Part shown: one piece after another, positions 9,901 to 25,092 of the stretch | How the letters are laid out: each line of letters begins with the position of its first letter | Position numbering within the stretch: position 1 is the stretch's first letter | Origin: an uncultured Polycyclovorans sp. | GTDB taxonomy: Bacteria > Pseudomonadota > Gammaproteobacteria > Nevskiales > Nevskiaceae | Reading direction: 5' to 3' | Assembly: GCA_964425915.1 (NCBI GenBank) | Contig: CAYROO010000010.1 | Location: 7,314 to 71,313 of the forward strand | DNA length: 64,000 bases | Position numbers and translations under genes: made by a program | Notes under the pieces: generated by a model | The model's database searches: none | What the model was told of the DNA's origin: nothing | Seen by the model: only the letters and a program-made list of their open reading frames with translations

Positions 9901-11783
9901 CCTCGGATCCGCGTCAGCTCGCCTTGCAGACCCATTTTGCGCTGATGCGCGATTTTCTCGATTCCCAGGCCCGGGTGATGGGGCTGGTGGCGGCGCCGGC
10001 CGGATCCGCCGTGACGGCTCCCGGACCCGCGGCGACTACGATGACGTCCCAAGGCGTGCGCTTCCCCCTGTTACACGGCGCCGAGAAAAAGGTCGACGGC
10101 ACGCGTGTGGTGTTCGAGAAGCGCCTCTGTCTGGAGCAGGACGCGTTCCTGCAGGATCACACCATCGGCGGCGCCCCCAGTGCCCACGACCCGACGCTGT
10201 TACCGATTCCGGTGGTGCCGTTCACCTTCAGCATGGAGCTGTTGGCGGAGGCTGCCCAATCCATGCTGGGGCGCAGTGACCTGCGCGTGGTGGGGCTCGA
10301 CCAGGTCCGCGGCAGCCGCTGGCTGTCCTTGGATCAGGGGGAATTGCGGCTGCGCGTGGTGATGGAACCGCGCCCCGGCAGCGATGACGCACCGCAGCTG
10401 TTCGGGCGGATCTTCGCGCTTGGCATCGGAGGCCCCCCGGGCGGCCTGGCGGTCTTCGAGGGCCTGGTACGCCTCGGCCGCGCCTATGCAACGCCGCCTG
10501 CAGCACGCCCGTGGAGTTCGCCCGATGAACACCCGCCGCGCAACAATCCGGATGGCGAGCTGTACGCCCACGGCATGTTCCATGGGCCGCGACTGCAGGG
10601 CGTCCGCCATATCCGCCGCTGGGGCGAAAACGCCATCGAGGCGGATCTGGAGGCGATCCCCACCCACGACTACTTCAGCCGCTTCAGCACCCCGTCGTTC
10701 GAGCTGGACGCGGCCATGCTCGATGCCGCCGGACAGCTTGCCGGTTACTGGCTCACCGAGAAACATACCTGGGGCTTCAACTGCTTCCCGTTCCGCCTGG
10801 CTCGCTTTGACCTTTTCGCACCGCCGCCGGCGCCGGGCACCCGGGTGCTGTGCCGGATGACGCTGCGCATGACTGGAGAGCAGTTGCTGGAAGCCTCGAT
10901 GGACATGATCGGACCGGACGGCACACTGGTCATGCGCGCCGATCATTGGGAGGACCGCAAGTTTTCGGTGCCGCAGCGGCTGTATGACTATCGTCTACAG
11001 CCACAGACCCGCACGATGTCCGAGCCCTGGCTGCGGTCGCAGACCGGCCAGGATCATCACTACGCCCGCCTGATGGAACCTTTTGCCGCCGATTTCCTGG
11101 ATGAGGGCGGCGGGATCTGGCGGCGCATGCTGGCCCACATGGTGCTGGGTCATCGCGAGCGAGCGGCCTTCTACAGCCTGCCCGCCAACAGTAGCCGGCG
11201 CGAAGAGTGGCTGATGGGCCGCATCGCCGCCAAGGAGGCACTGCGCGAGTGGATGAAGGCCACGCACGGCCATGAACTCGCCTCGGCCGACTTCGAGCTG
11301 ATCGCCGATGAGCGCGGTCAGCCCCGTGCCAGCTGCGCGCCGTTGCCCGAGCTGGCCATGCCAACCGTATCGATCAGCCACAGCCGTCGCTGGGCGGCGG
11401 CCAGCCTGTCGCCTCCTGGCGAACCCTGTGGACTCGACTATCAGCGGCTCGATCATGTCGACCCGGATCTGCTTGCAGCCGGCGCCCTCACCGACCTCGA
11501 GCGCGCACTGCTGCAACCCTGGCGCTCGCTGCCCAGCTATGCCCAGGTCACGGTGGCGCTGTGGGCCAGCAAGGAGGCCGCAGCCAAGTCGCATGGTGAG
11601 GGTCTGGGTGGCCGACCGGTGGACTGGCGCGTGGTGTCGCTATCGGGTGAGCCCTTGCCGGCCCACGCTGCGGTAGAGCACCGCGGGTGGCGCTATCTGA
11701 TCAGTCTTCTCTACCCCGGCCCCGGCGAGGTGGTCGCGTTCTGCTGCGAGCGCCACAACATCGCCCTGCCGCAGCCTGCCTGA
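6954..11783 (+). CDS. Type I PKS subunit KS-AT-DH fused to a C-terminal Sfp-type 4'-phosphopantetheinyl transferase domain
   Basis: KS motifs (IVDAACASS with Cys208, EAHATGIPLGD, KSQISHA); AT (FLFPGEGAQ, GHSTGE with Ser676); PKS-type DH (FLQDHTIGG...P). The C-terminal ~230 aa carry PPTase signatures (ISHSRRWAAA, GLDYQ, WASKEAAAK). The GTG start overlaps the upstream stop by 8 nt. Confidence 0.88.
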   Translation: MAEPLDIAIIGMSGVYAGSRDVPAYWQNILDRRYCVSEAPEAWSRGVLDRDGRAPNRVYTAQGGWLHDLAEFDPREFGVMPNTVDGREPDHFLALKQSRDALRDSGYLDKPFNHERAGVILGRGNNTNRGAANLIAHGNEIDQMVDLVAKVRPDLSETELDALREGLRAQLPPFNPEMLPGLIPNVTTGVIANRLDLMGPNCIVDAACASSLVALEQACRELQLGRCDLMLSGGVHAQTPPHSYMIFSQINALSRERIRPFDAAGTGTLLGEGCGVVVLKRLADAERDGDRIYAVIKGIGVASDGRAKGLFAPRSEGQVVAMRRAYEASGIDPATVSLIEAHATGIPLGDRTEIQSLKEIFGERQGALPHIALGSVKSQISHAIPASGAASLIKIALALQQKVLPPMLIDAPAPHLELEQTPFYLNSEARPWVHDPRQPRRAGANAFGFGGINAHVLLEEYRPGNRPVQVPVLHAPSDGELVMLAAADRTALLVRVAQLQHRLEQTPRPPLSSVAQHCANMAEGAHRLAIVASDIDDLQKKLGQAHDKLAKDDARPFKTRNGIHYGAGPAPGKLCFLFPGEGAQYPGMLRDLCVQFPAARAWFDFLEETVVPGERDSRAPIVFAPPTTLDASTRAALEQRLFDMDIASETVFAASMALFDVLTGLGLKADAMLGHSTGENTALTASRVRRFTDRREIADTVRDLNRIYRELDARGEIVEGSLLTIGALKPDRRQALLSQAGGDIVVAMDNCPNQLVIFGSREAVASVREREAAEGAICAELPFGRAYHTALFKPIADAYREYFAGIEFGEGIATLYSARSAAPFSHDAAGIRELVAQQWESRVRFTETIERLYQDGYRVFVEVGPSSNLTGFVSDILRSADDVVVVGTDSRRKAGLAALRSALAQIFAAGVNFPPAALFAHRDIPPMADSAPLKPMPRLNLMMPRLSWPESLPVPPLPMTPAAADGPLQAAPVAAPAASVASPSDPRQLALQTHFALMRDFLDSQARVMGLVAAPAGSAVTAPGPAATTMTSQGVRFPLLHGAEKKVDGTRVVFEKRLCLEQDAFLQDHTIGGAPSAHDPTLLPIPVVPFTFSMELLAEAAQSMLGRSDLRVVGLDQVRGSRWLSLDQGELRLRVVMEPRPGSDDAPQLFGRIFALGIGGPPGGLAVFEGLVRLGRAYATPPAARPWSSPDEHPPRNNPDGELYAHGMFHGPRLQGVRHIRRWGENAIEADLEAIPTHDYFSRFSTPSFELDAAMLDAAGQLAGYWLTEKHTWGFNCFPFRLARFDLFAPPPAPGTRVLCRMTLRMTGEQLLEASMDMIGPDGTLVMRADHWEDRKFSVPQRLYDYRLQPQTRTMSEPWLRSQTGQDHHYARLMEPFAADFLDEGGGIWRRMLAHMVLGHRERAAFYSLPANSSRREEWLMGRIAAKEALREWMKATHGHELASADFELIADERGQPRASCAPLPELAMPTVSISHSRRWAAASLSPPGEPCGLDYQRLDHVDPDLLAAGALTDLERALLQPWRSLPSYAQVTVALWASKEAAAKSHGEGLGGRPVDWRVVSLSGEPLPAHAAVEHRGWRYLISLLYPGPGEVVAFCCERHNIALPQPA

Positions 11784-11834: not shown

Positions 11835-13433
11835 ATGACCTCCACGCTGTTCATCGGCCTCGACGGCTGCACGTTCACTGTTCTCAACGAGATGGTGAAG
11901 GACCTCCCCGGCGAAGGCATCACCATGCCGTTCATGAAGAAGGTGCTCGAAGGCGGCGTCCGCGCCCGTCTGCGCTCCACGCCCAACCCGCTGACTCCGC
12001 CCGCATGGTGTTCCATCATGACCGGCAAGAACCCCGGGGCTCACGGCGTGTTCGACTTCATCCGCGCCGAGGACAAGGGCGGTGAGGTGTTCTGGACGCT
12101 CTATGACGCCCGCGATGTCGACAGTGAGATGATCTGGTCGATTGCCAGCCGCAAGAAGAAGTCGGTGGCCGCGCTCAACTTCCCGCTCACCGCACCACCG
12201 CCCGAGGTCAACGGCTGCATCGTGCCCGGGTTCATCCCGGCCAAGCACCTGCGCCGCAATACCCACCCGCGGGAACTGTTCGAACGGTTGAAGCAGAACG
12301 TCCCCGACTTCAACCCCAAGGAACTGGCCTGGGATTTCGACAACGAAAAGCAGGCCCTGGAAGTGCTGTCGCCCGAGGACACCGAAAAGTGGGTGCGCTA
12401 CCACCTGCCGCGTGAGGAGCAGTGGTTCAAGGTGGCGGAGTACGTGCTGGAAAATGACAAGCCGGACCTGATGGCCGTGATGTTCGACGGCACCGACAAG
12501 ATCCAGCACCAGGCCTGGCCCTCACTGGATCCCGCGCTGGTGCCGAAGAATCCGCAGGGACACGACCTCGCCATGCGGCAGGTCTGCCTCGAGTACTTCC
12601 GCAACCTGGATCGCTATATCGAGCGCCTGGTCTCCCTGGCCGGCCCGGAGGCCCAGGTGTTCTTCGCCTCCGACCATGGCTTCACCGCCAGCACCGACGT
12701 CCTGCGTATCAACGCCTATCTGGCCGAGCTCGGCTACCTCACCTGGGCCGAGAACGATGGCTCTGAGCAGGCCCTGCGTCGCGAGGCCAGCGACTTCGCC
12801 AACCTCGACTGGTCGAAGACCACCGCCTATTGCCGCACACCGTCCTCCAACGGCATTCACATCCGCGTGGCGGAAAAGCCCGGCGATCCGGGCATCTCGC
12901 CAGACGACTACGAGCGCTTCCGCGACAAGCTGATTGCCGACCTCAAGGCGCTGCGTCACCCGATCACCGGCAAGGCCTTCGTGGCCGACGTGCTGAAGCG
13001 TGAGGAGTGGTTCCCGGGCGCGCACATGAAGGAGGCCTGCGACCTCACCCTGGTGCTGCACGACCACGGCTTCGTGTCGATCCGCAATCTCAGCCCCTCA
13101 GTGGTGCAGCGGCCGACGCCGGCAGGCACCCACCATCCGGACGGCATCTTCCTGGCCTACGGCAAGGGCATCGCGCCGCGCGGCGAGGTCGATCTCCAGC
13201 AAATCGTCGATGTCTGCCCGACCCTGCTGCACAGCATGGGACTGTCGGTCCCCTCAGACCTGGAAGGCCAGGTGGCGCTGAACTTCTTCGACGAGGGCTG
13301 GCTCCAGGAGCACCCGGTCAAGCAGGGCGCCAAGACACGCGCCGTCGCCTCGCGCGCGCCCAGCGAGGAAATGGATGCGCAGGAGCGTCAACAAATGATC
13401 GAGCAGCTGCAGATGCTCGGTTACATGGAGTGA
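11835..13433 (+). CDS. Alkaline-phosphatase superfamily protein (type I phosphodiesterase / nucleotide pyrophosphatase-like)
   Basis: The N-terminal LFIGLDGCTF and the STPNPLTPPAWCSIMTG region resemble the NPP/AP-family metal and nucleophile motifs. ASDHGF appears later in the protein. The gene lies 51 nt after the PKS gene on the same strand. Confidence 0.7.
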   Translation: MTSTLFIGLDGCTFTVLNEMVKDLPGEGITMPFMKKVLEGGVRARLRSTPNPLTPPAWCSIMTGKNPGAHGVFDFIRAEDKGGEVFWTLYDARDVDSEMIWSIASRKKKSVAALNFPLTAPPPEVNGCIVPGFIPAKHLRRNTHPRELFERLKQNVPDFNPKELAWDFDNEKQALEVLSPEDTEKWVRYHLPREEQWFKVAEYVLENDKPDLMAVMFDGTDKIQHQAWPSLDPALVPKNPQGHDLAMRQVCLEYFRNLDRYIERLVSLAGPEAQVFFASDHGFTASTDVLRINAYLAELGYLTWAENDGSEQALRREASDFANLDWSKTTAYCRTPSSNGIHIRVAEKPGDPGISPDDYERFRDKLIADLKALRHPITGKAFVADVLKREEWFPGAHMKEACDLTLVLHDHGFVSIRNLSPSVVQRPTPAGTHHPDGIFLAYGKGIAPRGEVDLQQIVDVCPTLLHSMGLSVPSDLEGQVALNFFDEGWLQEHPVKQGAKTRAVASRAPSEEMDAQERQQMIEQLQMLGYME

Positions 13434-13438
13434 GGCCG

Positions 13439-13723
13439 ATGGCACCCGACACCATCATCGCCAGGCTCATCGCCCTGCTTGAAGACTTCACCCAGGACTG
13501 GGACCAGGAGCCCGACGCCGGCATGTCGGCGGATACGCTGCTGCTGGCCGATCTCGGCTTCGAGTCGGTCGACATCATCCAGCTCACCGTCGCCATCGAA
13601 GAAGAGTTCAAACTGTTCCGCACGCCGTTCGACAAGCTGCTGATGAAGGACGGCCGCTACGTCGATGACCTCAGCATCGGCCAGATCGCGACCTTCCTGC
13701 AGCCCTACGTGCAGGCCGCCTGA
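13439..13723 (+). CDS. Discrete acyl carrier protein
   Basis: 94 aa starting at an internal ATG of ORF 13007..13723. It has an ACP-like helix II motif (LADLGFESVDIIQL), is acidic, and lies 5 nt after the preceding stop. Confidence 0.7.
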   Translation: MAPDTIIARLIALLEDFTQDWDQEPDAGMSADTLLLADLGFESVDIIQLTVAIEEEFKLFRTPFDKLLMKDGRYVDDLSIGQIATFLQPYVQAA

Positions 13724-13732: not shown

Positions 13733-14593
13733 ATGGCTTTTGCCTCGGTCGACAATGCCCAGCTCGCCTGGCAGCAGCTGGGCGAAGGTCCCGACCTGGT
13801 GCTGGTTCACGGGCTGGCGACCAATCGTGCGTTCTGGTTTGGCCATGCCATGCGGCTGTCGCAGCGGTTCCGCGTCACCCTGTTCGATCTGCGGGGTCAT
13901 GGCTACAGCAGCACGCCAGAACACGGCTACGAGATTCGACGACTGGGCGCCGACATCCTTGGCCTGATGGATCAACTGTCGATCCCACAGGCGGCGCTGA
14001 TCGGCCATAGCTACGGCGGTGCGGCCGCCATTGAAGCGGCGGTGCAGGCACCGGAGCGGGTCACCGCAATGGCGGTGCTGGATGCCCGCAGCCTGCTTTT
14101 TCAGCCGCAGATGTGGCTGCATGAGGCGCCCGACCTCAGCCCCTTCGAGGCGGAGATCGCACAGGGCACGGAAGTCGACTGGCCGCGCGAGCCGCAGGTG
14201 GGACTGCGTTTCCTGGAGATTGCCGCGCGGCGCTGTCTGGCCGGGCAGGCGCCTGGCGCGCGCGATCCCGTCACCCCCTTTGGCGAAGGTCGCGGTGCCC
14301 GCAAGGCGGCGCGGCAGTGGCTGAACCTGATCGAGCAGACCACCGCCTGGGACGACTTTCATCGCCCGGGCGCCGACATCCCGGCGTTACGCTCGCTTTC
14401 GCAACCGACCCTGCTGATGTACGCCGATGGCAGCCGCTGCCTGAAATCGGGAGAGGGCCTGCGGAACCTGTGGCCGGCGGCGCGTTTCCAATTGCTGGAA
14501 GGCGCGGCGCACTTTTTCCCCCTGACCCACGCGGAACAAGTGGTTCACCAGCTGTTCGACTTTCTTGCCCCCCTGACCCTGACGGAGGCCTGA
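13733..14593 (+). CDS. Alpha/beta-fold hydrolase
   Basis: LVLVHGL oxyanion region and GHSYGG nucleophile elbow. Typical size of 286 aa. Confidence 0.8.
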   Translation: MAFASVDNAQLAWQQLGEGPDLVLVHGLATNRAFWFGHAMRLSQRFRVTLFDLRGHGYSSTPEHGYEIRRLGADILGLMDQLSIPQAALIGHSYGGAAAIEAAVQAPERVTAMAVLDARSLLFQPQMWLHEAPDLSPFEAEIAQGTEVDWPREPQVGLRFLEIAARRCLAGQAPGARDPVTPFGEGRGARKAARQWLNLIEQTTAWDDFHRPGADIPALRSLSQPTLLMYADGSRCLKSGEGLRNLWPAARFQLLEGAAHFFPLTHAEQVVHQLFDFLAPLTLTEA

Positions 14594-14596
14594 CCG

Positions 14597-15475
14597 ATGA
14601 AGTCCTTGATCCCCCTGTTGCTCACCCTGACGACCCTGGCCTGTCACGCCCCGACCAGCGTCCGTGCCGACGACGGCAGTACCCAGACCTATACGTTCAA
14701 GGCCGGCGGCCACGAGCGCAGCTACGAGGTCTATCGCCCCGCCAGCGCGAAGGGCAGCGACAAGCGTCCGCTGGTGGTGGCGCTGCACGGCGGCTTCGGC
14801 ACCGGCGAGATCATGGCGGAACAGAGCCGCTTCAACGCGGTCGCGGATCGCGCCGGCTTCATCGTGGCGTATCCGGACGGCATCGCCCGGGCCTGGAACG
14901 CCGGACGCTGCTGCGCCAAGCCGATGAAGGAGAAAGTCGACGACGTCGCCTTCATCAAGGCGGTGATCGACCGCATCGCAGCCGACTACCCGATTGATCG
15001 CAGCCGGGTGTTCGGCACCGGTTTCTCCAACGGGGCCATGATGGTGCACCGGATCGCCTGTGAGGCGCCGTCGGTGTTTGCCGCCATCGCGCCGGTGTCG
15101 GGTGGCGTCATGCTGGACCGTTGCGACAGCGGACGCGGCGTCCCCACCCTGATGATCCAGGGCAAGCTGGACAAGCGCATTCCCTGGGACGGCGGCACGG
15201 TGGAAGACAGCTACCGCCCTTCGATGGCGGCCTTGGTGGACATGCTCGGCAAGCGCAACGGCTGCGGGGCGCAAGCCAAGCAGCTGCAGAAGCGCGGCCA
15301 GCTCGCCTGCTACCGGCAGGAGGGCTGCAAAGCCGCCCTGGAATGGTGCGGGCTGGATGAAGTCGGGCATCAATGGCCCGGCGGCAAGACCTTGATGGCC
15401 CGCTTCCTGGGCCCCAATACCCAGGCCTTCGATGCCAGCCAGGGGATCTGGGCGTTCTTCGCCGCTCAGCGCTGA
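14597..15475 (+). CDS. Secreted PHB-depolymerase-family (LpqC-like) esterase
   Basis: Signal peptide (MKSLIPLLLTLTTLACHA). Also PLVVALHGG, DDVAFIKAVIDRI and GFSNGAMM (nucleophile elbow). Confidence 0.75.
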   Translation: MKSLIPLLLTLTTLACHAPTSVRADDGSTQTYTFKAGGHERSYEVYRPASAKGSDKRPLVVALHGGFGTGEIMAEQSRFNAVADRAGFIVAYPDGIARAWNAGRCCAKPMKEKVDDVAFIKAVIDRIAADYPIDRSRVFGTGFSNGAMMVHRIACEAPSVFAAIAPVSGGVMLDRCDSGRGVPTLMIQGKLDKRIPWDGGTVEDSYRPSMAALVDMLGKRNGCGAQAKQLQKRGQLACYRQEGCKAALEWCGLDEVGHQWPGGKTLMARFLGPNTQAFDASQGIWAFFAAQR

Positions 15476-15645
15476 ACATCGGGGTCAATTCTCCCGTTGA
15501 CCCTGCGGGGGCGGTCCGGTAGAACCGGCGCTTTACTGCGGCCTGCCGGCCGCGGAGGGCGGCCCGTCCGCCCCTGACATCAACAATCGGACCGACCGGG
15601 CCTGCCCACGCAGGCGCCTGCCGGCGTGGGGGAGCTTGACCGTAT

Positions 15646-16401
15646 ATGTCGCTAACGGCGTCTAGAGTGGCACTGATCACCGGTGCCGCCGGGGGTATCG
15701 GTCAGGTGACCGCCCAGCAGTTCGCGCAGGCGGGGTATCGTTTGGCCCTGCTCGACCAGCAGGCCGGTCCACTGGCGGTGACGGTGGACGGCCTGCGGGC
15801 CTCCGGCTTCGAGGTGCGCGGCTACGTCGCCGACCAACGTGATGCCGCGGGGCTGACGGCCGCCTTTTCGGCCATGCGGAACGACTTTGGCCGGCTCGAC
15901 GCCGCCTTCAACAATGCCGGCGTGCCATCCCGACACTTGCCCCTGCACGAGCTCACCGATGAGGAGTGGGGCAACTGTCTGGACGTCAATCTCAACGGCA
16001 CCTGGCGTTGCATGCGCGAGGAGATCCGCTGGATGCTCGACGTCGGTGGCGGCTGCATCGTCAATAATGCTTCAGTCTACGCACTCAATGGCGGTCCCAG
16101 TCCGGCCTACACCGCCAGCAAGCACGGCATTGCCGGCCTCACCAAGACAGCTGCATTGCAGTACGCCGCACGCAGTATTCGGGTCAATGCGGTGTGTCCG
16201 GCGTTGGTGACGGCTGGCATGGGCTTGAAGGCGATTCAGCATGCGGCGCTGAGCAAGACCGACCTGCTCGAAAAGCATCCCGCCGGTCGTGCTGCCAGTG
16301 CCGAGGAAGTGGCGCGCGCGGTACTCTGGCTATGCTCGCCCGACGCCGACTTCATCCACGGCCACATGCTGGCGCTGGACGGCGGTTACGGGGCTCGCTG
16401 A
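15646..16401 (+). CDS. Short-chain dehydrogenase/reductase (SDR)
   Basis: TGAAGGIG cofactor motif, NNAG, and YTASK catalytic motif (YxxxK). 251 aa. Confidence 0.88.
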   Translation: MSLTASRVALITGAAGGIGQVTAQQFAQAGYRLALLDQQAGPLAVTVDGLRASGFEVRGYVADQRDAAGLTAAFSAMRNDFGRLDAAFNNAGVPSRHLPLHELTDEEWGNCLDVNLNGTWRCMREEIRWMLDVGGGCIVNNASVYALNGGPSPAYTASKHGIAGLTKTAALQYAARSIRVNAVCPALVTAGMGLKAIQHAALSKTDLLEKHPAGRAASAEEVARAVLWLCSPDADFIHGHMLALDGGYGAR

Positions 16402-17897
16402 AGCCCCGGATCGAGACCGGAGATCGCGCCCGCGCAGGCATAGCCGCGATTGCGTTCGGGCGCCCCAGAGGTCCCGCCGTTCGCCGCCAGGAGCGTCTCG
16501 AACGGGGTCTCCAACAAGCTGTCCACCAGCTGCTGGTAGGCATCCCGCATGGCAGGCAGCGCCTCGAACAGCACCTGCTCGGTGCTGTCCTCGGCAGTGT
16601 GATGAAAGGGGTTGGCACCGGTCAGACTCATCATCGGGATGCCGAGGTTGTACGCCACCTCGGCCTCGCCCGGCGCCGCCTGCCCCGCAGCAAAGCGGAA
16701 GAACATCCCCAGGTCACCGACCCGGAAGGCATCATTAACGAGGGCTTCCAAGACTGGGTTTTCAGACACCACTAGGGCGCGGGTCTGGGTCGGCCCTGGC
16801 ATCGGCACGGCACCGCCCAGGGCCTCCAGATAGCCGCGGCTGACCAGACCGGCACCCAGGTGCACGTAGGCCATGACACCCTCTGGGCGCACACAGTTCA
16901 GCGCCCGCTCCAACCCATAGCCATAGACCTCATGACCGCCGGTGGCGAGAAACATGACGGTGTAGGGCAGCGGCCCCTCACGGCGCGACCGCGCGGCCAG
17001 ATGTCGGGCCAGGGCCACGGTCAGGGCCGCGCCCGGGGCCCGCTCACCCGTCCCGCTGAGCCAGGTGTTCATGGGTGTGCCGATGATGAGAAGGCGGGGA
17101 TCCCGGCCCGGCAGCAGGGCGATACTGTTGTCAACGGCGCCGCTGACGACATCGGCCGTCAAGGTCAGTGTCGCCGACTCACCGCGTCTGGCGGCGCTGG
17201 CCAGGCGGTTGAAGTCCTCGCGCCCGACGATCACTGTGGGTAGCTGCCCCAGTGGATACTGGATGTCGTAGTTGTGCGCCGCGATCAGATTATCTGGGGC
17301 ATCAAACGTGACCACGGCGCCGACCGCGCCGTCGGCCTCGGCGGCGCGCAAGGCTTGATGGGTATCGGCGGCATCTGCATTGAACTGGCGGGAGAACCGC
17401 AGCAGCGCGATGCGCCCCTCCAGCTCCGGGCGACCGATCAGCGGCAGACCGGGCGGCGCCAGTGGCGCGCGTAGGCCAGCAGCGGAGGTCACCCCCTGTC
17501 CGAACCATGGAAAAGCCGACACTGCCTCGGGCCCGTCTCCGAGATCCGCCTGCAATGACACCGCCCGCACACGGAAACGCGGAAAGGCGAAGCGCTGTCG
17601 CTGCACCTGTGTCAGCTCCGGAATCGCGGAGAACTCGGTGCGGATCCACTCATGCACCGCGTCGCCCAGGCCACTGCCACTGCGCGGGCCGCGCAGGCAG
17701 TGTCCCACCGCCGCCGGTGCGCCCTGCCAGCATTCGTCGAAGCGGGGATCCAAGGCCACCACATCCTGGTAGGCACGGACCAGGGCACCGACATCGGCAG
17801 CGGCGCTTGGCGGCCCCGCCGGCGCCTCAATTGCGCCGCCGCCGCCACAGGCCGCCAGCAGGCCCACCGCGAAAAGCGTGAGCAGACGCCCCCTCAT
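16386..17897 (-). CDS. Lipoprotein with PA-domain / M28-like peptidase features
   Basis: ATG 17897 is preceded by GGAGGGGG. Lipobox LLAAC-GGGG. The central segment resembles a protease-associated domain, and the C-terminal half resembles an M28-type fold (GGHEVYGYG). Function is uncertain. Confidence 0.5.
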   Translation of the reverse strand: MRGRLLTLFAVGLLAACGGGGAIEAPAGPPSAAADVGALVRAYQDVVALDPRFDECWQGAPAAVGHCLRGPRSGSGLGDAVHEWIRTEFSAIPELTQVQRQRFAFPRFRVRAVSLQADLGDGPEAVSAFPWFGQGVTSAAGLRAPLAPPGLPLIGRPELEGRIALLRFSRQFNADAADTHQALRAAEADGAVGAVVTFDAPDNLIAAHNYDIQYPLGQLPTVIVGREDFNRLASAARRGESATLTLTADVVSGAVDNSIALLPGRDPRLLIIGTPMNTWLSGTGERAPGAALTVALARHLAARSRREGPLPYTVMFLATGGHEVYGYGLERALNCVRPEGVMAYVHLGAGLVSRGYLEALGGAVPMPGPTQTRALVVSENPVLEALVNDAFRVGDLGMFFRFAAGQAAPGEAEVAYNLGIPMMSLTGANPFHHTAEDSTEQVLFEALPAMRDAYQQLVDSLLETPFETLLAANGGTSGAPERNRGYACAGAISGLDPGLQRAP

Positions 17898-17959
17898 GAT
17901 CCCCCTCCGGTGATGACGATATAGGTCCATCATCGCGTGTGTCTCCCGTGACATTCCGG

Positions 17960-18898
17960 CTACCGCACGGTGCCCGCTTCGACCGTGTCTTCGCGGTCTT
18001 CGTAACCGTAACTCCGGGCCAAGGCGCGGACCTCGGGATCAAACGCGGCGCCGTCATCACGCCAGGGCACCGGCCCCGCAAGCGAATAGGGCGGTGCCGG
18101 TAGGGTGATGCCGTCCAGCACGGGATCCAGCACCTCCATCTCCAGACCACGCGGCGCCTCGGGCGGCCCGAACCCCGCAAATGGGCTGTCGGCTGCCGCC
18201 ATCATCCGGTCGCACACCGCGGTCTCGACGGGCGCCAGGCCAAGCCCGGCGATCAGCGCCGACAGGGCCTGGTCCGGCTGCGACTGCAGGGATTCCATGC
18301 GCAGCATCCTGCGCTGTGCGGCGGGCCACCAGCGCTGCAGATTTCGCTGGCAGCGAAGCCAGGGCAACTGTGGTTCGATCGCGGCCGGCTGCGGTGAGCG
18401 TGCGTGGTCACGATAGTCGGCCGGGACAAACACTTGCGATGCCAGCCAGCGCGACCACACCACACCGTGTGGCAGCGGGTGCCGCAGGCAGTGAACGAGG
18501 TCCGCCTGCGGCGCCAACGCCTGCCAGCGCAACAGTTCATGGGGCCGCAGGGCGCTTTCACTGTCCGGGATCACCAATCGGCGGGGCGCCACGGCGGCCG
18601 CCAGTGCAGCCAACACATCGGCGGTACGCTGATTCGAGCGCTGCTGCAGCCAGTCCCGAGCGGCCGCGATGCCGCGCGCATTCTGGCCGCCGGTCAGGTG
18701 CTCAGCGATGGCGCGCAGCAACCCGTCGGCGATGGGGGCCTGACTGATCGCAAAGATTTCGAGCAAGGCATCCACCCGCTCTGCGAGGCCCAGCCTAAGC
18801 TCTGGCATCGGCGCCAGCTGCGGATGCGACCCCAGCATCTGTGCCAGCAGCGACGTGCCCGAGAACGGCGCGCCGAACACCAGGATGGGTGCGCTCAT
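17960..18898 (-). CDS. Sulfotransferase-family protein
   Basis: N-terminal PAPS 5'-phosphosulfate-binding-like loop (ILVFGAPFSGTSLLAQML). A CLRHP...S region resembles the 3'-phosphate motif. The start overlaps the upstream stop (ATGA). Confidence 0.6.
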   Translation of the reverse strand: MSAPILVFGAPFSGTSLLAQMLGSHPQLAPMPELRLGLAERVDALLEIFAISQAPIADGLLRAIAEHLTGGQNARGIAAARDWLQQRSNQRTADVLAALAAAVAPRRLVIPDSESALRPHELLRWQALAPQADLVHCLRHPLPHGVVWSRWLASQVFVPADYRDHARSPQPAAIEPQLPWLRCQRNLQRWWPAAQRRMLRMESLQSQPDQALSALIAGLGLAPVETAVCDRMMAAADSPFAGFGPPEAPRGLEMEVLDPVLDGITLPAPPYSLAGPVPWRDDGAAFDPEVRALARSYGYEDREDTVEAGTVR

Positions 18899-20382
18899 CG
18901 CCAGCCTCCAGGCCGCCCGAGCCAGATCTCACAGCCACCGCGATGGTTGTCGATGTAATGCCAGTCGCCACCCGTCTGCTGCTGGGCGATGGTGGGCCCG
19001 TAGGGGTTGGCGGTGGCGACGAATAGCCCATGCGGCGTCGACGCAAAATTGCGGATGCCCCAGTTGTAGCGGTTACCAAAGGCGTTGCGGGTCACCGGCT
19101 GCCAATGCTCGCCATCGGCGCTGCGCCAGACCTCGGCGCCCCCCAGGTGGGTGGTCAGCCAGTCCCTGCCCCACAAATCGAGTAGGGCCACCGCGTCGGG
19201 CGGCCAGGTGTGCAGCGGCAGATAGGCCAGGTTCTGGCCCCAGCTGAAGGTTCCGGCGTAGAGCCAGCCGTCATGCACGACCATGCGCCACACATAGCCG
19301 TTGAACAGCTTCTCGAAACCCGGCCCCAGCCCCGACAGCGGGTAACGCAGACCCTGGGGTGTGCTGCGCGACTCGCCGACGATCAGCTCCCAGCGGTCAT
19401 CGGGCCAGACGCGAATGATCTCAGCAGCGGCTGGGCCGATGCCCGTGGCGCGGTGAAAGCCACCGTTGAGCACCCCGGTGCCGACATAGAGCGCGCCGCG
19501 AAACGCGCAAAGCGAGACGCCCACTTCGTTAAAGACACCCCGCCCGGCGCCGCGCGCCAGCACCCGGGTCCAGCGATAGGGCAAGTCACCGCCTGCGGTC
19601 TTCCATAACTCGAAGCCGGTCTTGGGGTTGACGGTGGCGGCGTAGAGGTGGCCGTTAAACTCCTCCATCTCGAAGACGGTGACGTTGGCCTTGCTGCCGA
19701 AGCCCTCCTCATTGGCGGCCTGCCAGTCGGCACTCTGAATGTCGTCCGTCGCATAGATGGTGGAGTCGGAGCCGATACTGTCGGAAATCTTGCGGGCGCC
19801 CTGCGATGAGCTGGTCGGCGTGGTGTGGACACGCCCCTGAAACACCTGCAGGGTCCGAAAGGACCGCACTGCCGGGCTGAAAGGCGGACGCGCGGCCGGC
19901 GCAAAGTGACGGCCGTCCTCGCTGCGCAGAATATCCGGCGGATCGGTCAGCTGTGGCGCCCAGGTCGACACATACAGGCAGGGCTTATGGTCGCTGGCGC
20001 CCTGAAAAACGCCGATACCGCGGTAGCCGATGTAGCGCGGCACCTGCAGGTTGCCGCGGCTCGCTGGCACCAGTGGCGCCTGGTACACGCGGGTCCACTG
20101 ATCCTCGGCCGGATCAAAACACCAGATCTCCGCCTGTCGCGGAATGTCGTAGATGAAGTCCGGACTATCGACCGGCCAGGGCCGAATATCCGGACGCAGC
20201 TGGTTCCACTTGTGGGCCGGGATGATCGCCCGGGTGGTGCCGACATACACCCGCCCTTCGAACACGGCCATGCTGTGGGCATAGTGATTCTGCCCATCGC
20301 CAAAGCCGTTGGGGCCGGTCAGACGGAAATCGGCCTCGCCAAGCCCGGCGGCCTCCGGGATGTCGGTGCTCAGGGCAGCCAC
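18895..20382 (-). CDS. Six-bladed beta-propeller-like protein of unknown function
   Basis: Six copies of an F/H-x-G-x-[LV]-[YFH]-x-[GAT]-T motif: FEGRVYVGT, FQGRVHTTP, FNGHLYAAT, FRGALYVGT, HDGWLYAGT, PHGLFVAT. No N-terminal hydrophobic signal peptide. Confidence 0.55.
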   Translation of the reverse strand: MAALSTDIPEAAGLGEADFRLTGPNGFGDGQNHYAHSMAVFEGRVYVGTTRAIIPAHKWNQLRPDIRPWPVDSPDFIYDIPRQAEIWCFDPAEDQWTRVYQAPLVPASRGNLQVPRYIGYRGIGVFQGASDHKPCLYVSTWAPQLTDPPDILRSEDGRHFAPAARPPFSPAVRSFRTLQVFQGRVHTTPTSSSQGARKISDSIGSDSTIYATDDIQSADWQAANEEGFGSKANVTVFEMEEFNGHLYAATVNPKTGFELWKTAGGDLPYRWTRVLARGAGRGVFNEVGVSLCAFRGALYVGTGVLNGGFHRATGIGPAAAEIIRVWPDDRWELIVGESRSTPQGLRYPLSGLGPGFEKLFNGYVWRMVVHDGWLYAGTFSWGQNLAYLPLHTWPPDAVALLDLWGRDWLTTHLGGAEVWRSADGEHWQPVTRNAFGNRYNWGIRNFASTPHGLFVATANPYGPTIAQQQTGGDWHYIDNHRGGCEIWLGRPGGWR

Positions 20383-22721
20383 GACCAGACTTCGACAAAC
20401 AGGAATCGCCAGAGCGCACGAGTGAACACCACCAGCGCGATGTGGCGCTCGCCGGTGGCCTTGCCGACCCCCGTCATCCCCGATTTCAGCCGCTGCTCCT
20501 CATCCTGGAGCGCGATCTGTACACGGACCACCTTGCCGTAACGGGATGCCTCGGCGGCCGGCGCGATGGCCGTGACCTCACCGTCGAACTCGGTGCCCGG
20601 ATAGGCCCACACCTTGGCGGTCGCCGGACGCCCAACGGCCACCTCGCCGACCGCGGACTCCGGCAGTTTGATTTCCGCCTGGCGCAGGCCGGCATCCTCG
20701 ATGACCGCGAGCACTTCGCCGCGCTCCAGATAACGGCCCACTGCGAACTGCAGCCCGCTCGATACCACCCGCCCCGCGATCGGCGCCGTCAGCTCGGTTT
20801 GCGACAGCTGCTCCCGATGGAAGGCCAGCAAGGCCTCCTCGCGAGCAATCTGCGCCTGCACCGCATTGATGTTTTCGTCGCGCGCCGGGCTGGTCAGCAA
20901 TTCCAGGGCGCGCTGCGCCTCGGCCAGCAATTGGGCATCGACTTCAGCGGTGCCGCGGGCGCGATCGAAGTCCTCGACGCTGACGCCGCCCTGCCGATAG
21001 GCGCGCGCCAACCGGTCGGCGCTGCTGCGGGAAAACTCATTGCGCTTGGTGAGCGTGGCGACGCGGCTACGCGCCACTTCGATTTCTTCCTCCCGAGCCC
21101 CCTTTTCCAGCAGGGTCAGGTCGGCACGCAACTGCGCCAGATTGGCCTCACTGGCGGCGACCTTGGCACGCTGCTCCGCATCGGCAATACGCACCAGCGG
21201 CTGCCCGGCAGCGACCATGTCGCCTTCGGCGACCAGCACCTCGCGGATATCGCCGGGCACCAGCGCGCGCACGTCGGCACGCGCCTGCGGCAGGATCTCC
21301 AGGTCGCCACTGGGCTCATAGCGGTAAGGAAACAGGCAGAGCAACAGAATGCCGCCGAAGATGAACCCTTGCCGCCGCGTCGGCCGCCAGGCTTTCAGCT
21401 GCTGCCAGCGTGTATCCCAGCCCAGACCGTCTCGCGGCATCGGCGGCCGCCCCAATTGCTTGAACATGACTACCCCTATCACCGCGAGGATTGCAAGAAA
21501 ACCCAGACCGCCCGTGACGTCGATCAATGCGGGCGCCGAGTAGCGCCCGATCAACAGCAACACCAGGGAACCGAACAGAAAAGTGGCGATGTAGTACGCC
21601 CGCAGCCACCGCTGCGTCAGCGGGCGCAATTGCTGCTGCCATGGCCGGCTTTTGCCGAGAATGGCGAAAAAGGACTGCTGCTTGAGGTCCGGCATGCCGA
21701 CCCAATGCGACAGGAAGGCGTAGCCATCGTAGCGGGCCAGCGGGTTCGCCCGCACCAGCACCGAGGTGGCGATGAGGACCATCAAGGCGGTAAGGCTCTC
21801 GGTCAGCGCCCCACCCTCGCGAAACTGCACCAACCAGACCAGCATGAGCAGACCCATCAGCGCCAGGCTGCCGGTCACCGGCGCGGCGATGATGCGCAGT
21901 CTGACGGATCGCCGGCTGAGCTCGGGAATCCCCCGGGTATCGACCTTGATGACGGGCACCGGCGGCCGGCCCCAGCTCAGTCCCACGCGCGGCGCAGCTG
22001 CACAAAGTCGCGCCACCGCATAGGCACAGCTGGCCTGCGACACCAGGTTGATCAGGACCACCCCTGATGGCAGAGACCACCACAGGCCACCGCTCTGAAC
22101 GTGCTGAACAGCCGCGTCCCACCAAACCATCCGGTGTCCCCACACGGCAGCCAGCAGCAGTATCAACACCATCAGCCCCAGCAGGCCCGCAGATCGGCTG
22201 ATCAGCGGCCAGGCAAACAGTCGTCCCAGTGCAACGAACGGCGCGGCCGCCAGCGGCCGGTCCAAGGCACTGTCGTGGCCGGCACCCACATAGAACTTGT
22301 GAAGCCCCCCCACCAGTGCCGGCTGCGCTAACGACCCCGGCACCGTCGACGGCACCAGGGCTGCCGCGCGGTTGGCGCGAATCGGGCGGCCACGACGTTC
22401 GGCTTCGTTCCAGGCCAGCGTATTGCGGGGCACCGGAATCGGCTCCAGCCGTCCCGGCGCCAGCAGTGCATGCTGTCCGAGCCAGGCCTCGATGTCGCGA
22501 CATCGCGACGGGTCGATCCCGGCCTCCGCCGCCATCGCCCAGCGCTGTTCCGGGGCACGGGCGCCGTTGAGGGCTTCGGCGACCCGCTGCACGCTGCGAT
22601 CGTCGGCAGGCCAGGCTTCCGACAACTGCAGCCGCCGGCCGAGCTCATCGACCGGAATGCGCAGGCTGAGATAGCGCGACGCAGCGCTCACGGCGTGCCG
22701 GGTACGCGGACTGGCGTCCAT
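20370..22721 (-). CDS. Fusion of a polytopic inner-membrane domain (site-2-protease-like, HExxH lost) with a HlyD-family periplasmic adaptor
   Basis: About 130 aa of soluble N-terminus, then about 8 hydrophobic segments (aa ~160-470). The C-terminus has a lipoyl-like segment, a coiled-coil hairpin and a beta-barrel typical of HlyD/MFP. NPLARYDG (21723-21746) resembles the S2P NxxPxxxxDG motif. No HExxH occurs anywhere in the protein. Confidence 0.7.
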   Translation of the reverse strand: MDASPRTRHAVSAASRYLSLRIPVDELGRRLQLSEAWPADDRSVQRVAEALNGARAPEQRWAMAAEAGIDPSRCRDIEAWLGQHALLAPGRLEPIPVPRNTLAWNEAERRGRPIRANRAAALVPSTVPGSLAQPALVGGLHKFYVGAGHDSALDRPLAAAPFVALGRLFAWPLISRSAGLLGLMVLILLLAAVWGHRMVWWDAAVQHVQSGGLWWSLPSGVVLINLVSQASCAYAVARLCAAAPRVGLSWGRPPVPVIKVDTRGIPELSRRSVRLRIIAAPVTGSLALMGLLMLVWLVQFREGGALTESLTALMVLIATSVLVRANPLARYDGYAFLSHWVGMPDLKQQSFFAILGKSRPWQQQLRPLTQRWLRAYYIATFLFGSLVLLLIGRYSAPALIDVTGGLGFLAILAVIGVVMFKQLGRPPMPRDGLGWDTRWQQLKAWRPTRRQGFIFGGILLLCLFPYRYEPSGDLEILPQARADVRALVPGDIREVLVAEGDMVAAGQPLVRIADAEQRAKVAASEANLAQLRADLTLLEKGAREEEIEVARSRVATLTKRNEFSRSSADRLARAYRQGGVSVEDFDRARGTAEVDAQLLAEAQRALELLTSPARDENINAVQAQIAREEALLAFHREQLSQTELTAPIAGRVVSSGLQFAVGRYLERGEVLAVIEDAGLRQAEIKLPESAVGEVAVGRPATAKVWAYPGTEFDGEVTAIAPAAEASRYGKVVRVQIALQDEEQRLKSGMTGVGKATGERHIALVVFTRALWRFLFVEVWSWLP

Positions 22722-22740
22722 GGACGTCCGACGTCGGCCA

Positions 22741-24129
22741 TCAGGGCGTGAGCGCGACGGCGCCCGACAGCAAGCGGTTGAGATGAACCGCGTCGGCCGC
22801 GACCAAGGTGCCGGCAGCCTGCTTCAGCGCCAATGACTGCAATAGCAGCTCGTAGCGCAGAGCCTGGTAGCGCACCTCCGCCGCAAAGCGCTGCTCCAGT
22901 GCGTTGAACACATCGGCACTGGTCCGGGTGCCGGCCTCGAAACCGGCACGCGTCCCGGACTCGGCAAGTCGGGCGGCCTCCACCGCATCCTGCAATGCGC
23001 TGACCTGTTGTTGCGCCGCCATCATGCCAAGAAATGCCTTGCGTGCGGCGAACACCGCATCGGTCTGCGCCTGTTCCAGGGCTGCTTCGGCGCGGATCCG
23101 CTGGAGGTCGGCCTGATCGATAACCGCACTGAGCTGCCCGCCCGAGAACAGCGGCATTGCGGCCCGCAGACCGATCCGCGCTTCTCGCTCGTCACGCTCG
23201 CCGGCGAGCCCGCCGCCGGCATCAATCTGATAGGCGGCTCCGACAATATCCAAGGTGGGCCAGCGGCCGCGGTGCGCCTTACGGACATCCAGTTCCGCCA
23301 ACCGCAAGGACAGCGCAGCCTGCAACACCTGCGGGTTGTCAGTGCGGGCACGCTCGACCCAGGCGTACTCGTCGGGCGGATTCGGCAGCAGGCCGTTGAA
23401 GCTGGGCGACAGGCCCAGAATACGCGCATCGCGGCGGCCGGCCGCGGCATGAAGGCGGCGGGTGGCGATGCGGGCATCCGACTCCACCTCCGTCCGCCTC
23501 GCCACCGCCAGCTTCACTGCCGCCTCGGCATACTGGCGTTCCGCCTCGGTGGTGAGCCCGGCATCGGCCTGACTGACCACCTGGTCCCGTTGCTGACGCA
23601 CCGCACTCAAGCGGGCCTTGGCCAATCCCACCGCTTCCTGGGCCGCCAGTGCACCGAAGTAGGCCTCCGCTACGTCCAGCAGCAAGCCGCTGCGTTGCGC
23701 CTTCAGCGCCAGTTGCGATTGCTGTTCCCGCACTTCGGCCTGATCGAGCTCGGCCCACAGAGTGGGCTGCACGACGGCCTGGCTGAGGTTGACCCCGTAA
23801 AGATACCGCTCGTATTCGTCTTCGCGGTCGACGTCAACGATGCCGAAATAATCACCGGTGATGGATTCATCGACATAGGCGCCCTCGGCAAACGCCGAGA
23901 GTTGCGGCAACAGCTTGCCGCGCGCACGCTCGATGCCGCGGGCGGCCACCGCCGCCAGGGCGTCCGCACTGCGAGCGTCAGGGTGGTTCCGCAGGGCATC
24001 ACCGTAGTAGCTGACCAGGTCCGCGGTGTCCTCCGCTGCCACTGCCAGCGGTGCCAGCAGGATCGACAACACCATCAGCAGCACGCGACGTTGCCCGCCC
24101 CGGGCGGTGCCCCAGCAATATTCAGCCAT
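22741..24129 (-). CDS. TolC-family outer-membrane efflux protein
   Basis: Signal peptide followed by two tandem repeats of long alpha-helical and beta segments typical of outer-membrane factors. 462 aa. It lies 19 nt upstream of the adaptor-fusion gene. Confidence 0.85.
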   Translation of the reverse strand: MAEYCWGTARGGQRRVLLMVLSILLAPLAVAAEDTADLVSYYGDALRNHPDARSADALAAVAARGIERARGKLLPQLSAFAEGAYVDESITGDYFGIVDVDREDEYERYLYGVNLSQAVVQPTLWAELDQAEVREQQSQLALKAQRSGLLLDVAEAYFGALAAQEAVGLAKARLSAVRQQRDQVVSQADAGLTTEAERQYAEAAVKLAVARRTEVESDARIATRRLHAAAGRRDARILGLSPSFNGLLPNPPDEYAWVERARTDNPQVLQAALSLRLAELDVRKAHRGRWPTLDIVGAAYQIDAGGGLAGERDEREARIGLRAAMPLFSGGQLSAVIDQADLQRIRAEAALEQAQTDAVFAARKAFLGMMAAQQQVSALQDAVEAARLAESGTRAGFEAGTRTSADVFNALEQRFAAEVRYQALRYELLLQSLALKQAAGTLVAADAVHLNRLLSGAVALTP

Positions 24130-24302
24130 GTCGTTCGTTCATTGGTAGGTCCCCGGTGCCCGCGCTCTGGCCACCAGGAGCGCGCTAGCTTGCCTCAAGT
24201 CGTCAAGCGAAAATGTAAGACAATGCCGTGATCATCGGACTCGTCGCCGAGCCGGTCCCCGGCCGGTGCAGGATACCGAGATTGCCGTTGGAGGGCATAT
24301 CT

Positions 24303-24662
24303 ATGTGGCCATTGCTGTTGATATTTGCTGTCGCCATCGCCGCCCTGGGCTGGCGTCTGCGTCAGCTTTCCCGGCTGATGAGCCGGATGGAAACCGAGCT
24401 TTCAGCGCTGGCGGGCGCCCGAGCGTTGGAGGGTCCGGACGTCGAGGCATTGCTGGCGCCGGAGCGTCCCAGCCTCATCACCATCGAGATCCTCAACCCG
24501 TTTGAACTGGCCATGCGCGAATCCAAGCTCGCCGGCACCTTCGGGTCGCTGGCACCGGCCCTGGTCCGCCAGGAAGTGCTGCGTCAGGCCACTCAGCGGG
24601 TGCGTCAGCAACTGGCCGAACAGGGCGTTGAAGCCGAGGTGCAGCTTGTTCGTGGCCGCTAG
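24303..24662 (+). CDS. Small membrane-anchored hypothetical protein
   Basis: ATG preceded by GGAGGG. N-terminal TM segment (MWPLLLIFAVAIAALGW) followed by a helical region. No recognised family. Confidence 0.5.
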   Translation: MWPLLLIFAVAIAALGWRLRQLSRLMSRMETELSALAGARALEGPDVEALLAPERPSLITIEILNPFELAMRESKLAGTFGSLAPALVRQEVLRQATQRVRQQLAEQGVEAEVQLVRGR

Positions 24663-25092
24663 TGCCGGGCTGCTGGCGGTCGGCCTGATCGCGCTGCTGC
24701 TGGTGGAACGCGCCTTGTCGCGTCGCGCCCGGCACTGGGCGCGAATGGCAAGACGCCTGGCTGTGCGGGCCCACGATGCCGAGCTTCGCATCGAGCAACA
24801 GCAGCGGCTGGCGGACATGCAGCGCCGGGCCGAGCAGGCGGTGGAACAGACCAATGCCACGGTGCGCGCCATCCACCGCGGCATCGCCCGGATCCCCTTT
24901 GGCATCCTGTCGCGCTTACAGGCGACTCGGGCACCCGCACGCGTGGTGGAAGTGGTCCACGACGAAACCAGCGATGTGGTCTATGACAGCATCTCGGCGG
25001 TGAATCGACTGGTCGGCGCCCAGGTCCGGCGAGGCCTGCGCCCCCAGGAAGACCTGCCGACACTGAAGTCCGATGATCCGCCCCCGCTATGA
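24652..25092 (+). CDS. Hypothetical membrane-anchored coiled-coil protein
   Basis: Candidate GTG 24652 or TTG 24646 start inside ORF 24502..25092. It has a TM segment (AASAGLLAVGLIALLLV) and then a charged helical region. The start is uncertain. Confidence 0.4.
   Translation: MAASAGLLAVGLIALLLVERALSRRARHWARMARRLAVRAHDAELRIEQQQRLADMQRRAEQAVEQTNATVRAIHRGIARIPFGILSRLQATRAPARVVEVVHDETSDVVYDSISAVNRLVGAQVRRGLRPQEDLPTLKSDDPPPL

Follow-up and report, generated by a model that had tools for sequence, protein, structure and literature searches.

How does a TolC-type outer-membrane channel work when the operon that encodes it holds no pump, and what would it carry? The question is raised by five minus-strand genes at 16386-24129 of a 64-kb stretch of DNA from an uncultured Polycyclovorans sp. 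(contig CAYROO010000010.1; the whole stretch of 64,000 nucleotides is called the window below), which encode a TolC-family channel, a membrane protein fused to an HlyD-type adaptor, a beta-propeller, a sulfotransferase (ST) and a lipoprotein. TolC-dependent tripartite systems normally comprise an outer-membrane factor, an adaptor and a separate energised inner-membrane transporter, and a preliminary description of the locus, made from the sequence alone, had regarded the five genes as a self-contained module. Comparison across genomes instead tied the module, through gene runs shared by both and through persistent proximity, to the PfaA-type polyketide synthase (PKS) cluster at 14-16401 of the window. 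The module is most likely the tailoring-and-export arm of this 'secondary lipid' cluster. Its genes, in the order in which they would be transcribed, are as follows.

22741..24129, minus strand: TolC-family outer-membrane factor, 462 amino acids (aa), with a signal peptide (...LAVAA/ED) and an N-terminal hydrophobic segment
20370..22721, minus strand: fusion of a PqqD-like, an M50-like and an HlyD part, 783 aa
18895..20382, minus strand: cytoplasmic beta-propeller of an uncharacterised family, 495 aa, GTG start
17960..18898, minus strand: stand-alone sulfotransferase of the 3'-phosphoadenosine-5'-phosphosulfate (PAPS) type, 312 aa, Sulfotransfer_3
16386..17897, minus strand: lipoprotein weakly matching the PA domain, 503 aa when started at the ATG at 17897, a lineage-specific passenger

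The module is linked to a PfaA-type PKS cluster

To place the module in its genomic context, we used 80 loci obtained from a genome scan that was seeded with the propeller and covered 185,579 species genomes. These loci were annotated with the window's own proteins, and adjacency was counted from the spacing of gene ends. Word-indexed homologue searches with the fusion protein returned 17-22 relatives, and the propeller scan was far more productive. PKS core or accessory genes lay no more than 10 kb away in 43 of the 52 loci with full flanks, and three of four distant propeller relatives picked at random were found in the same PKS context.

The gene runs themselves were more specific. In the Polycyclovorans locus L001, one co-directional run holds the genes for PKS, phosphodiesterase, hexapeptide transferase, acyl carrier protein (ACP), hydrolase, esterase, OEP, fusion, propeller and ST. 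A metagenome contig (L091) begins with a PfaA-like gene, a gene for a KS-AT-DH protein ending in a phosphopantetheinyl transferase (PPTase), and genes for ACP, phosphodiesterase, hydrolase, a propeller fused to a methyltransferase and two further methyltransferases; it continues with two genes for short-chain dehydrogenases/reductases (SDR), an esterase, a TPR protein, the fusion and OEP, all co-directional except for one 136-aa minus-strand open reading frame (ORF) after the esterase gene. In Chondromyces and in one genome of Sulfomarinibacteraceae the propeller gene stands within the PKS operon (PfaA, PfaC-like, phosphodiesterase, hydrolase, propeller, SDR, esterase), adjoined by a gene for a fusion homologue of about 800 aa. 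Among the cyanobacteria, the Fischerella thermalis locus (L085) matched the propeller, ST, fusion and phosphodiesterase, and a Microcoleaceae locus (L086) matched the propeller, ST, fusion and PfaC; in Pelatocladus (L088) and F. muscicola (L087) only the propeller and ST were present inside the flank. The linkage to the PKS is clearer outside Nevskiales than within this order.

In the window, the cluster occupies the plus strand and comprises seven genes.

14..6961, plus strand: PfaA-type iterative PKS, KS-AT-4xACP-KR-DH (Pfam; TIGR02813 omega_3_PfaA, 1332 bits, above cut-off)
6954..11783, plus strand: second PKS protein, KS-AT-DH followed by a phosphopantetheinyl transferase at its C-terminus (Pfam)
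11835..13433, plus strand: alkaline-phosphatase-superfamily 'type I phosphodiesterase' (Pfam Phosphodiest, E=2.3e-42), no signal peptide
13439..13723, plus strand: discrete acyl carrier protein, 94 aa (PP-binding, 21.7 bits, above cut-off)
13733..14593, plus strand: alpha/beta hydrolase (Abhydrolase_1, E=8.9e-28), conserved in the cluster
14597..15475, plus strand: esterase of the polyhydroxybutyrate (PHB) depolymerase family (Esterase_PHB; NF050058), conserved in the cluster
15646..16401, plus strand: SDR/ketoreductase (adh_short_C2, E=1.1e-52), conserved beside the module in many loci

The KS-AT-DH-PPTase gene is conserved beside the module or the propeller in other loci. The phosphodiesterase gene is present in every examined version of the cluster, each time together with an ACP gene. 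In the window 5 nt separate the two genes, which are direct neighbours also in L008, L090 and L091; in L001 and L006 a hexapeptide-transferase gene intervenes. It is an idea only, but the phosphodiesterase might act on the phosphopantetheine arm of the ACP and release the product. The 94-aa ACP is nested in a longer GTG-initiated ORF and hence has no ORF entry of its own; homologues of about 95 aa occur in all cluster versions, and the serine of their DLxxES.D motif is invariant. The esterase at 14597-15475 scored 174 bits against a cut-off of 150 as an 'extracellular catalytic domain type 1 short-chain-length PHA depolymerase', an enzyme type (polyhydroxyalkanoate depolymerase) that is odd in a PKS cluster. 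At the border between cluster and module, the SDR and lipoprotein genes are convergent, and their 3' ends overlap by 16 nt.

On the other side of the module, a divergent operon on the plus strand (24305-32216) encodes a small membrane protein, cytochrome b561, a DUF3570 protein and ApbE, followed by a thioredoxin-like protein, a second DUF3570 protein, a response regulator and a histidine kinase. L004, too, has a thioredoxin, DUF4266, DUF3570 and ApbE gene set, a short way upstream of its TolC module.

Four genes form the conserved unit

All five minus-strand genes were re-read and found at the coordinates and with the junctions that had been described. The TolC stop codon (TGA) is followed after a 19-nt gap by the fusion start (ATG), and the fusion stop and the GTG start of the propeller share a 13-nt overlap, GTGGCTGCCCTGA; both junctions were read in the sequence. 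The propeller and ST genes meet in an ATGA overlap at 18895-18898, and 62 nt separate the ST stop from the lipoprotein ATG at 17897. The longest ORF of the lipoprotein gene extends over 16386-17954, and a start at 17954 would leave 5 nt to the ST stop; the ATG at 17897 is preceded by a GGAGG Shine-Dalgarno sequence and yields MRGRLLTLFAVGLLAAC with the lipobox LLAAC. GC content at third codon positions was 0.78-0.81 in all five ORFs, which is the expectation for real genes in DNA of 65-68% GC. Scans of 15400-24500 for promoters (0 promoter-like sites, 0.9 expected from shuffles) and terminators (2 terminator-like sites, 4.4 expected from shuffles) were uninformative.

Of the 67 species genomes that could be evaluated, 53 had the TolC, fusion, propeller and ST genes in this order. 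Taken pair by pair, TolC preceded the fusion in 57 of 63 evaluable loci, the fusion immediately upstream of the propeller in 65 of 72, and the ST immediately downstream of the propeller in 70 of 77; by gene calls, the propeller and ST genes overlap by 4 nt in L001, L003, L004 and L006 and by 8 nt in L007. This four-gene order is far beyond chance. A lipoprotein homologue, by comparison, was detected in 5 of the 80 related loci. The conserved unit therefore consists of four genes, in part translationally coupled, among which the propeller and ST are the tightest pair, and the proposal that all five genes co-occur stands for these four and fails for the lipoprotein. The position after the ST is elsewhere taken by a GDSL lipase and a transglutaminase-like gene, by two M36 peptidases or by nothing.

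Profile searches upheld the assignments of the TolC protein, the HlyD part and the ST, and a structure model upheld that of the propeller. The searches did not uphold the M28 peptidase identity given earlier to the fifth gene product: Peptidase M28 found no match in Pfam (E up to 10), NCBIfam or a PDB sequence search, and the one domain assigned, PA, matched below threshold (19.3-19.4 bits against a cut-off of 23.9).

The arrangement varies at its downstream end and in copy number. Two Hydrocarboniphaga loci (L005 and L046) have the order OEP, fusion and propeller with no ST directly following and a weak ST-like ORF 3-4 kb away. Among metagenome-assembled genomes of Oceanococcus (loci L042, L058, L062, L070 and L071), the fusion-propeller-ST set occurs twice in single genomes, one copy with TolC upstream and the other divergent from a PfaA-like gene and without TolC.

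The adaptor is fused to a probable relative of RiPP intramembrane proteases

The channel gene product matched Pfam OEP (E=1.6e-42) and scored 219 bits with TIGR01844 type_I_sec_TolC, just below the 225-bit cut-off. The fusion protein was less conventional, and three parts were delineated in it.

22452..22634, minus strand: cytoplasmic domain resembling PqqD and the RRE, the recognition element of ribosomally synthesised and post-translationally modified peptides (RiPPs), about aa 30-90 (family profile)
21327..22229, minus strand: M50 (site-2-protease)-like membrane domain, about aa 165-465 (NF041824)
20412..21290, minus strand: HlyD/RND_mfp adaptor part, about aa 478-770, with lipoyl domain, long coiled-coil hairpin and beta-barrel

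The adaptor part was recognised directly by HlyD_3 (E=1.4e-17), HlyD_D23 (E=2e-17), a Biotin_lipoyl_2 match and TIGR01730 (103 bits, above cut-off). For the PqqD-like region, a profile of the aligned family retrieved a single PDB match, PqqD 3G2B (E=0.016), and the Pfam PqqD model matched relatives of the protein (P0311 with 27.5 bits, above cut-off; the L091 fusion with E=6.9e-4; P0017 with E=0.027); on the N-terminal 480 residues of the window's own fusion, Pfam at E up to 5 returned nothing, PqqD included. The membrane domain matched NF041824, the daptide intramembrane metalloprotease family, with E=8.3e-8 in the window and with 1e-32, 8e-31 and 2e-15 in cluster-linked homologues, and it matched NF058609 (YydH/LiaK) more weakly; both matches are significant, yet far under the equivalog cut-offs. 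Pfam Peptidase_M50 gave weak matches, in HExxH-bearing relatives only. Five membrane helices were recognised by hydropathy and two more from the structure model, giving seven upstream of the HlyD part; with about seven helices, the PqqD-like domain would therefore be cytoplasmic and the HlyD part periplasmic.

The membrane domain retains the framework of the protease and lacks its catalytic motif. A hidden Markov model (HMM) of the M50-like region found the HExxH-bearing proteins P0311 (4e-26) and P0315 (8e-22), and its alignment places SQxxxA (sqaarA) of the family opposite HELAHG; in the window's fusion, SQASC stands at the position of HELAH, HELAHG or HETAHG in relatives. HExxH is absent from all 86 of the 86 cluster-linked homologues. 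The sequence NPLARYDG at aa 326-333 corresponds to the M50 motif NxxPxxxxDG with the third zinc ligand, and NPxxxxDG is kept in 77 of the 86 homologues. A beta-hairpin is predicted at aa 245-261, just past the former HExxH helix, in the structure model. In a split version of the system (L089), the M50-like and HlyD proteins are encoded by separate adjacent genes.

Judged by these profiles and motifs, the fusion protein joins in one chain a PqqD-like domain, an M50-like membrane domain devoid of HExxH and an HlyD adaptor. The polytopic domain and the HlyD part of the preliminary description were thus both present, but the polytopic domain is not anonymous: it appears to be a PqqD-like domain followed by a dead homologue of RiPP-type M50 proteases. 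Its homology to the RiPP intramembrane metalloproteases of NF041824 and NF058609 extends over the N-terminal ~470 residues, covers almost the whole model and includes the NPxxxxDG motif and the predicted position of the beta-hairpin. Unlike these enzymes, the fusion has no HExxH, is joined to HlyD and is encoded in a PKS cluster without a precursor peptide. We found no description of a PqqD-M50-HlyD fusion in the searchable literature.

Other features of this protein and its relatives were recorded. The C-terminal tail (20370-20441, minus strand; last ~24 residues ...TRALWRFLFVEVWSWLP) is weakly hydrophobic and carries the motif RFxxVEVWSWLP, nearly invariant in homologues (R772, F773, E777, W779, S780, L782 and P783). 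P0311, a 720-aa relative with PqqD, HExxH-bearing M50 and HlyD parts, is encoded at L092:2375-8952 in the order HlyD-like gene, P0311, a 657-aa SecA-like DEAD ATPase and another HlyD-like gene, a set that may be a SecA-energised peptide exporter. P0315 (1257 aa) combines three FHA and three cyclic-nucleotide-binding domains with a PqqD-like region and an HExxH M50 domain, and it also matches a 'bacteriocin-type transport-associated' cyclic-nucleotide-binding (cNMP) family.

A propeller family coupled to group-transfer enzymes

The propeller found no match in Pfam or NCBIfam, and neither a signal peptide nor a membrane helix was detected in it; like the ST, it is without an export signal. Its AlphaFold2 model (pLDDT, the model's own confidence score, 89.7) is a beta-propeller, and a fold search with it returned generic Kelch, WD and GH-type propellers only, with template-modelling (TM) scores of at most 0.47. 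The protein is identical to the database protein P0018 and shares a 90%-identity cluster with WP_228349656.1 of Flagellatimonas centrodinii, which places the source of the window near this member of Nevskiales. Among 1.84 billion representative proteins, a profile search assigned 4188 representative clusters to the family, which has no Pfam model and of which we found no description in the searchable literature. Its best-scoring relatives, of 730-860 aa, are propellers fused to a methyltransferase dependent on S-adenosylmethionine; others are joined to secreted modules. A fusion of the propeller to the ST in relatives was considered and rejected, the fused domain being the methyltransferase. 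That one propeller is accompanied by an ST here and by a methyltransferase elsewhere points to the tailoring of one hydroxyl on a shared substrate.

The ST matched Sulfotransfer_3 (E=1.4e-11), and its only relatives in the PDB were the ST domains of olefin synthase (OLS; 4GOX, 5.9e-7) and CurM (4GBM, 4e-6), in alignments that span the N-terminal PAPS-binding loop (GAPFSGTS versus PRSGST) and the PEL motif. Further sulfur-related genes were seen in two of the loci. In Fischerella thermalis PCC 7521 (L085:9122-15992), a 274-aa sulfatase-like gene directly precedes the propeller gene, near which a TauD-family dioxygenase gene and a Sulfotransfer_3 gene also lie; a similar small sulfatase gene is near the propeller in L089.

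No pump is encoded with the module in most loci

As the preliminary description had it, Pfam and NCBIfam searches located no gene for an ATP-binding cassette (ABC), resistance-nodulation-division (RND) or major facilitator superfamily (MFS) transporter inside the operon or its immediate flanks. The only ORF with ABC-ATPase motifs in the window, at 55750-57597, is outside the operon, and such motifs were found within ±10 kb in 3 of the 80 loci, never adjacent.

A different picture emerged in 14 of the 49 loci that could be evaluated (among them L006:637-5923, L011, L015, L037 and L048), which belong to the Solimonas/Sinimarinibacterium clade. There TolC is immediately preceded by a trio of co-directional genes, DUF1329, BNR (YCF48-like) and an RND-superfamily gene (RND-like, MMPL/ACR_tran, ~940 aa). 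Homologues of the trio are absent from the window, from its closest relatives (L001, L009 and L010) and from the distant versions L083, L084 and L091. A pump that pairs with the fusion elsewhere and has been displaced here, which the preliminary description had named as evidence against its own reading, therefore finds partial support: such a gene exists upstream in relatives, and none is present in the window or its closest relatives.

The module thus resembles the tripartite TolC systems in its outer-membrane factor and in an adaptor with lipoyl, hairpin and beta-barrel parts. It differs from them in that no RND, ABC or MFS partner is encoded alongside in most loci, and in that the adaptor has its own seven-helix domain, which apparently comes from a protease and not from a transporter family.

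A model for tailoring and export of a polyketide lipid

We give somewhat better than even weight to a model in which the module tailors a sulfated polyketide lipid and exports it in a TolC-dependent manner, as an arm of the PKS cluster. The PKS and the discrete ACP would make a long-chain hydroxylated acyl product, a hydroxyl of which the cytoplasmic propeller and the ST would turn into a sulfate ester; in other lineages a propeller-fused methyltransferase would act in place of the ST. The resulting anionic amphiphile would enter the dead-protease membrane domain of the fusion, whose HlyD part, oligomerised like other adaptors, would dock onto the dedicated TolC paralogue, allowing the product to cross the periplasm and the outer membrane to the cell surface or the medium. 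The M50-like domain may serve as a non-catalytic entry gate or platform, and the PqqD-like domain as a docking site for a cytoplasmic partner, for example a carrier protein or the propeller. Export could draw its energy from the membrane potential, which would act on the anionic cargo, from proton coupling within the M50-like domain or from a transporter encoded elsewhere.

In Anabaena, DevBCA and the TolC homologue HgdD export the heterocyst glycolipids, which are products of Hgl/Pfa-like PKSs, and this system, minus its ABC component, would be the nearest functional analogue. In both, a PfaA/Hgl-type iterative PKS is paired with an HlyD-family adaptor and a TolC-family channel, the cargo here is presumably also an amphiphilic long-chain polyketide lipid bound for the cell exterior, and the adaptor part of the fusion weakly matches TIGR02971 DevB. 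In contrast to DevBCA-HgdD, the module has no DevC/DevA ABC permease or ATPase, its adaptor is fused to a PqqD-like and a dead M50 domain, and tailoring would be performed by an ST or methyltransferase with the propeller, not by a glycosyltransferase.

Several observations weigh against this model. Nine of the 52 full-flank loci have no PKS-cluster gene within 10 kb, and in the window itself the module is convergent with the PKS genes and not co-transcribed with them. Hydrocarboniphaga, Chondromyces and Sulfomarinibacteraceae either lack the ST or have it at another position, so that sulfation would not be essential to the cluster. No energising component was found in the operon or its flanks in the window, and the RND-like gene upstream of TolC in 14 of the 49 loci means that the module may not be self-sufficient. 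A Foldseek search with the model of fusion aa 1-480 (pLDDT 71) gave no significant PDB match, RseP ranking ninth with E=3.7, and the PqqD and M50 assignments rest on sequence profiles. Finally, homology to RiPP leader peptidases, together with a peptide-binding domain, would fit a peptide cargo better than a lipid.

Alternative explanations

The best surviving alternative, possible though on balance doubtful, is an ordinary tripartite system in which an RND, ABC or MFS transporter is encoded elsewhere in the genome and the fusion is an adaptor with a membrane anchor. Every TolC-dependent system characterised so far is known to have an energised partner; genome coverage here amounts to 64 kb, and the DUF1329-BNR-RND-like trio supplies a candidate of this kind in the loci that carry it. 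However, the trio is missing from the window and from the six other loci named above, ABC motifs are rare and never adjacent, and a 300-residue seven-helix domain with motifs conserved across phyla is far more than an anchor. The split version L089, moreover, keeps the M50-like protein as a gene of its own beside the HlyD gene.

A bolder form of the export model, which we consider unlikely, would make the fusion and TolC a fourth kind of TolC-dependent conduit, working without an ABC, RND or MFS pump. A catalytically dead intramembrane-protease domain, fused to the adaptor, would form the inner-membrane gate, the PqqD-like domain would take the cargo from the ACP or the propeller, and the sulfated lipid would be driven by membrane potential or proton flux. 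Derlins and iRhoms, among the rhomboids, are analogues of a gate recruited from a protease without its catalytic site.

The ST suggests another route, to which we assign a small probability. As in CurM and OLS, it would activate a beta-hydroxyacyl-ACP, whereupon a cluster hydrolase would hydrolyse and decarboxylate the intermediate and eliminate the sulfate to leave a terminal alkene, and a hydrocarbon or olefinic lipid would be exported. The closest solved relatives of the ST are indeed these activating enzymes, likewise in a PKS context; the cluster has a discrete ACP and two hydrolases, and Nevskiales are, by their organism names, hydrocarbon-associated bacteria. Against this, the window's ST stands alone and is not embedded in an ACP-ST-TE arrangement, being instead translationally coupled to the propeller beside the exporter. 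It is also dispensable, given that the cluster occurs without it, and it is interchangeable with methyltransferases in related clusters; methylation cannot be a leaving-group activation. The sulfatase-like and TauD-family genes that accompany the ST in Fischerella suggest, in addition, a persistent sulfate ester.

The fusion protein raises a further alternative, namely a RaxX-like sulfated RiPP, in which the PqqD-like domain would bind a ribosomal peptide that is tyrosine-sulfated in the cytoplasm and leaves the cell by way of the fusion and TolC; the PKS would lie nearby by coincidence or serve lipidation. In its favour, the fusion shares homology over its N-terminal half with daptide and YydH/LiaK-type proteases, which have a PqqD-like domain; HExxH-bearing relatives occur in peptide-export-like contexts, and the set of ST, adaptor and TolC is reminiscent of the rax genes. 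We nevertheless judge it improbable. The RaxST-RaxA-RaxB-RaxC system of Xanthomonas oryzae likewise encodes a cytoplasmic ST with a membrane-fusion protein and a TolC-family channel, but the module has neither a RaxB-type peptidase-ABC transporter nor a precursor gene, its ST is of a different subfamily, and it is linked to a PKS. A RiPP precursor in the cluster was sought as a candidate and rejected: junctions of 19, -13 and -4 nt leave no room for one in the module, and the ~95-aa ORFs of the cluster are ACPs. HExxH has been lost in every one of the 86 cluster-linked homologues, no peptidase-containing ABC transporter was seen, and no ABC ATPase lies within ±10 kb in 77 of the 80 loci. The ST is nearer to PKS STs than to any other solved ST, and the PKS linkage persists across phyla.

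Least probable of all, and very unlikely in our estimation, is secretion or processing of the variable downstream hydrolases (the PA lipoprotein, the GDSL lipase with the transglutaminase-like protein, and the M36 peptidases): genes for predicted exported hydrolases do follow the ST in several loci, but they vary and are absent in most, as the scarcity of the PA homologue illustrates, neither a secretion signal of the RTX or C-terminal type nor an ABC component was seen, and the PA protein has its own lipoprotein signal peptide and would use Sec and Lol.

Implications for the cluster and its hosts

Literature on polyunsaturated fatty acid (PUFA) synthase, on secondary-lipid synthases and on Nevskiales genera yielded no account of this PKS/export cluster, and the preliminary description's statement that the gene combination matches no described system agrees with the searchable literature, which gave no match. 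We rate TolC-dependent export of a PKS lipid as a known kind of process and the inner-membrane component found here as unprecedented. TolC is here teamed with an adaptor that carries a dead RiPP-type protease, usually with no pump encoded alongside; whether such a pair could move cargo by itself bears on the energy supply and the assembly of tripartite systems. The association with the module also provides a first functional context for a large beta-propeller family without a Pfam model, a family coupled to group-transfer enzymes.

The orphan cluster is widespread, occurring in Nevskiales, Halieaceae, Myxococcota, Sulfomarinibacteraceae and cyanobacteria. Its product is probably a sulfated or methylated polyketide lipid located on or outside the cell, and in algae- and hydrocarbon-associated bacteria like the present one this product could affect surface properties or host interaction.

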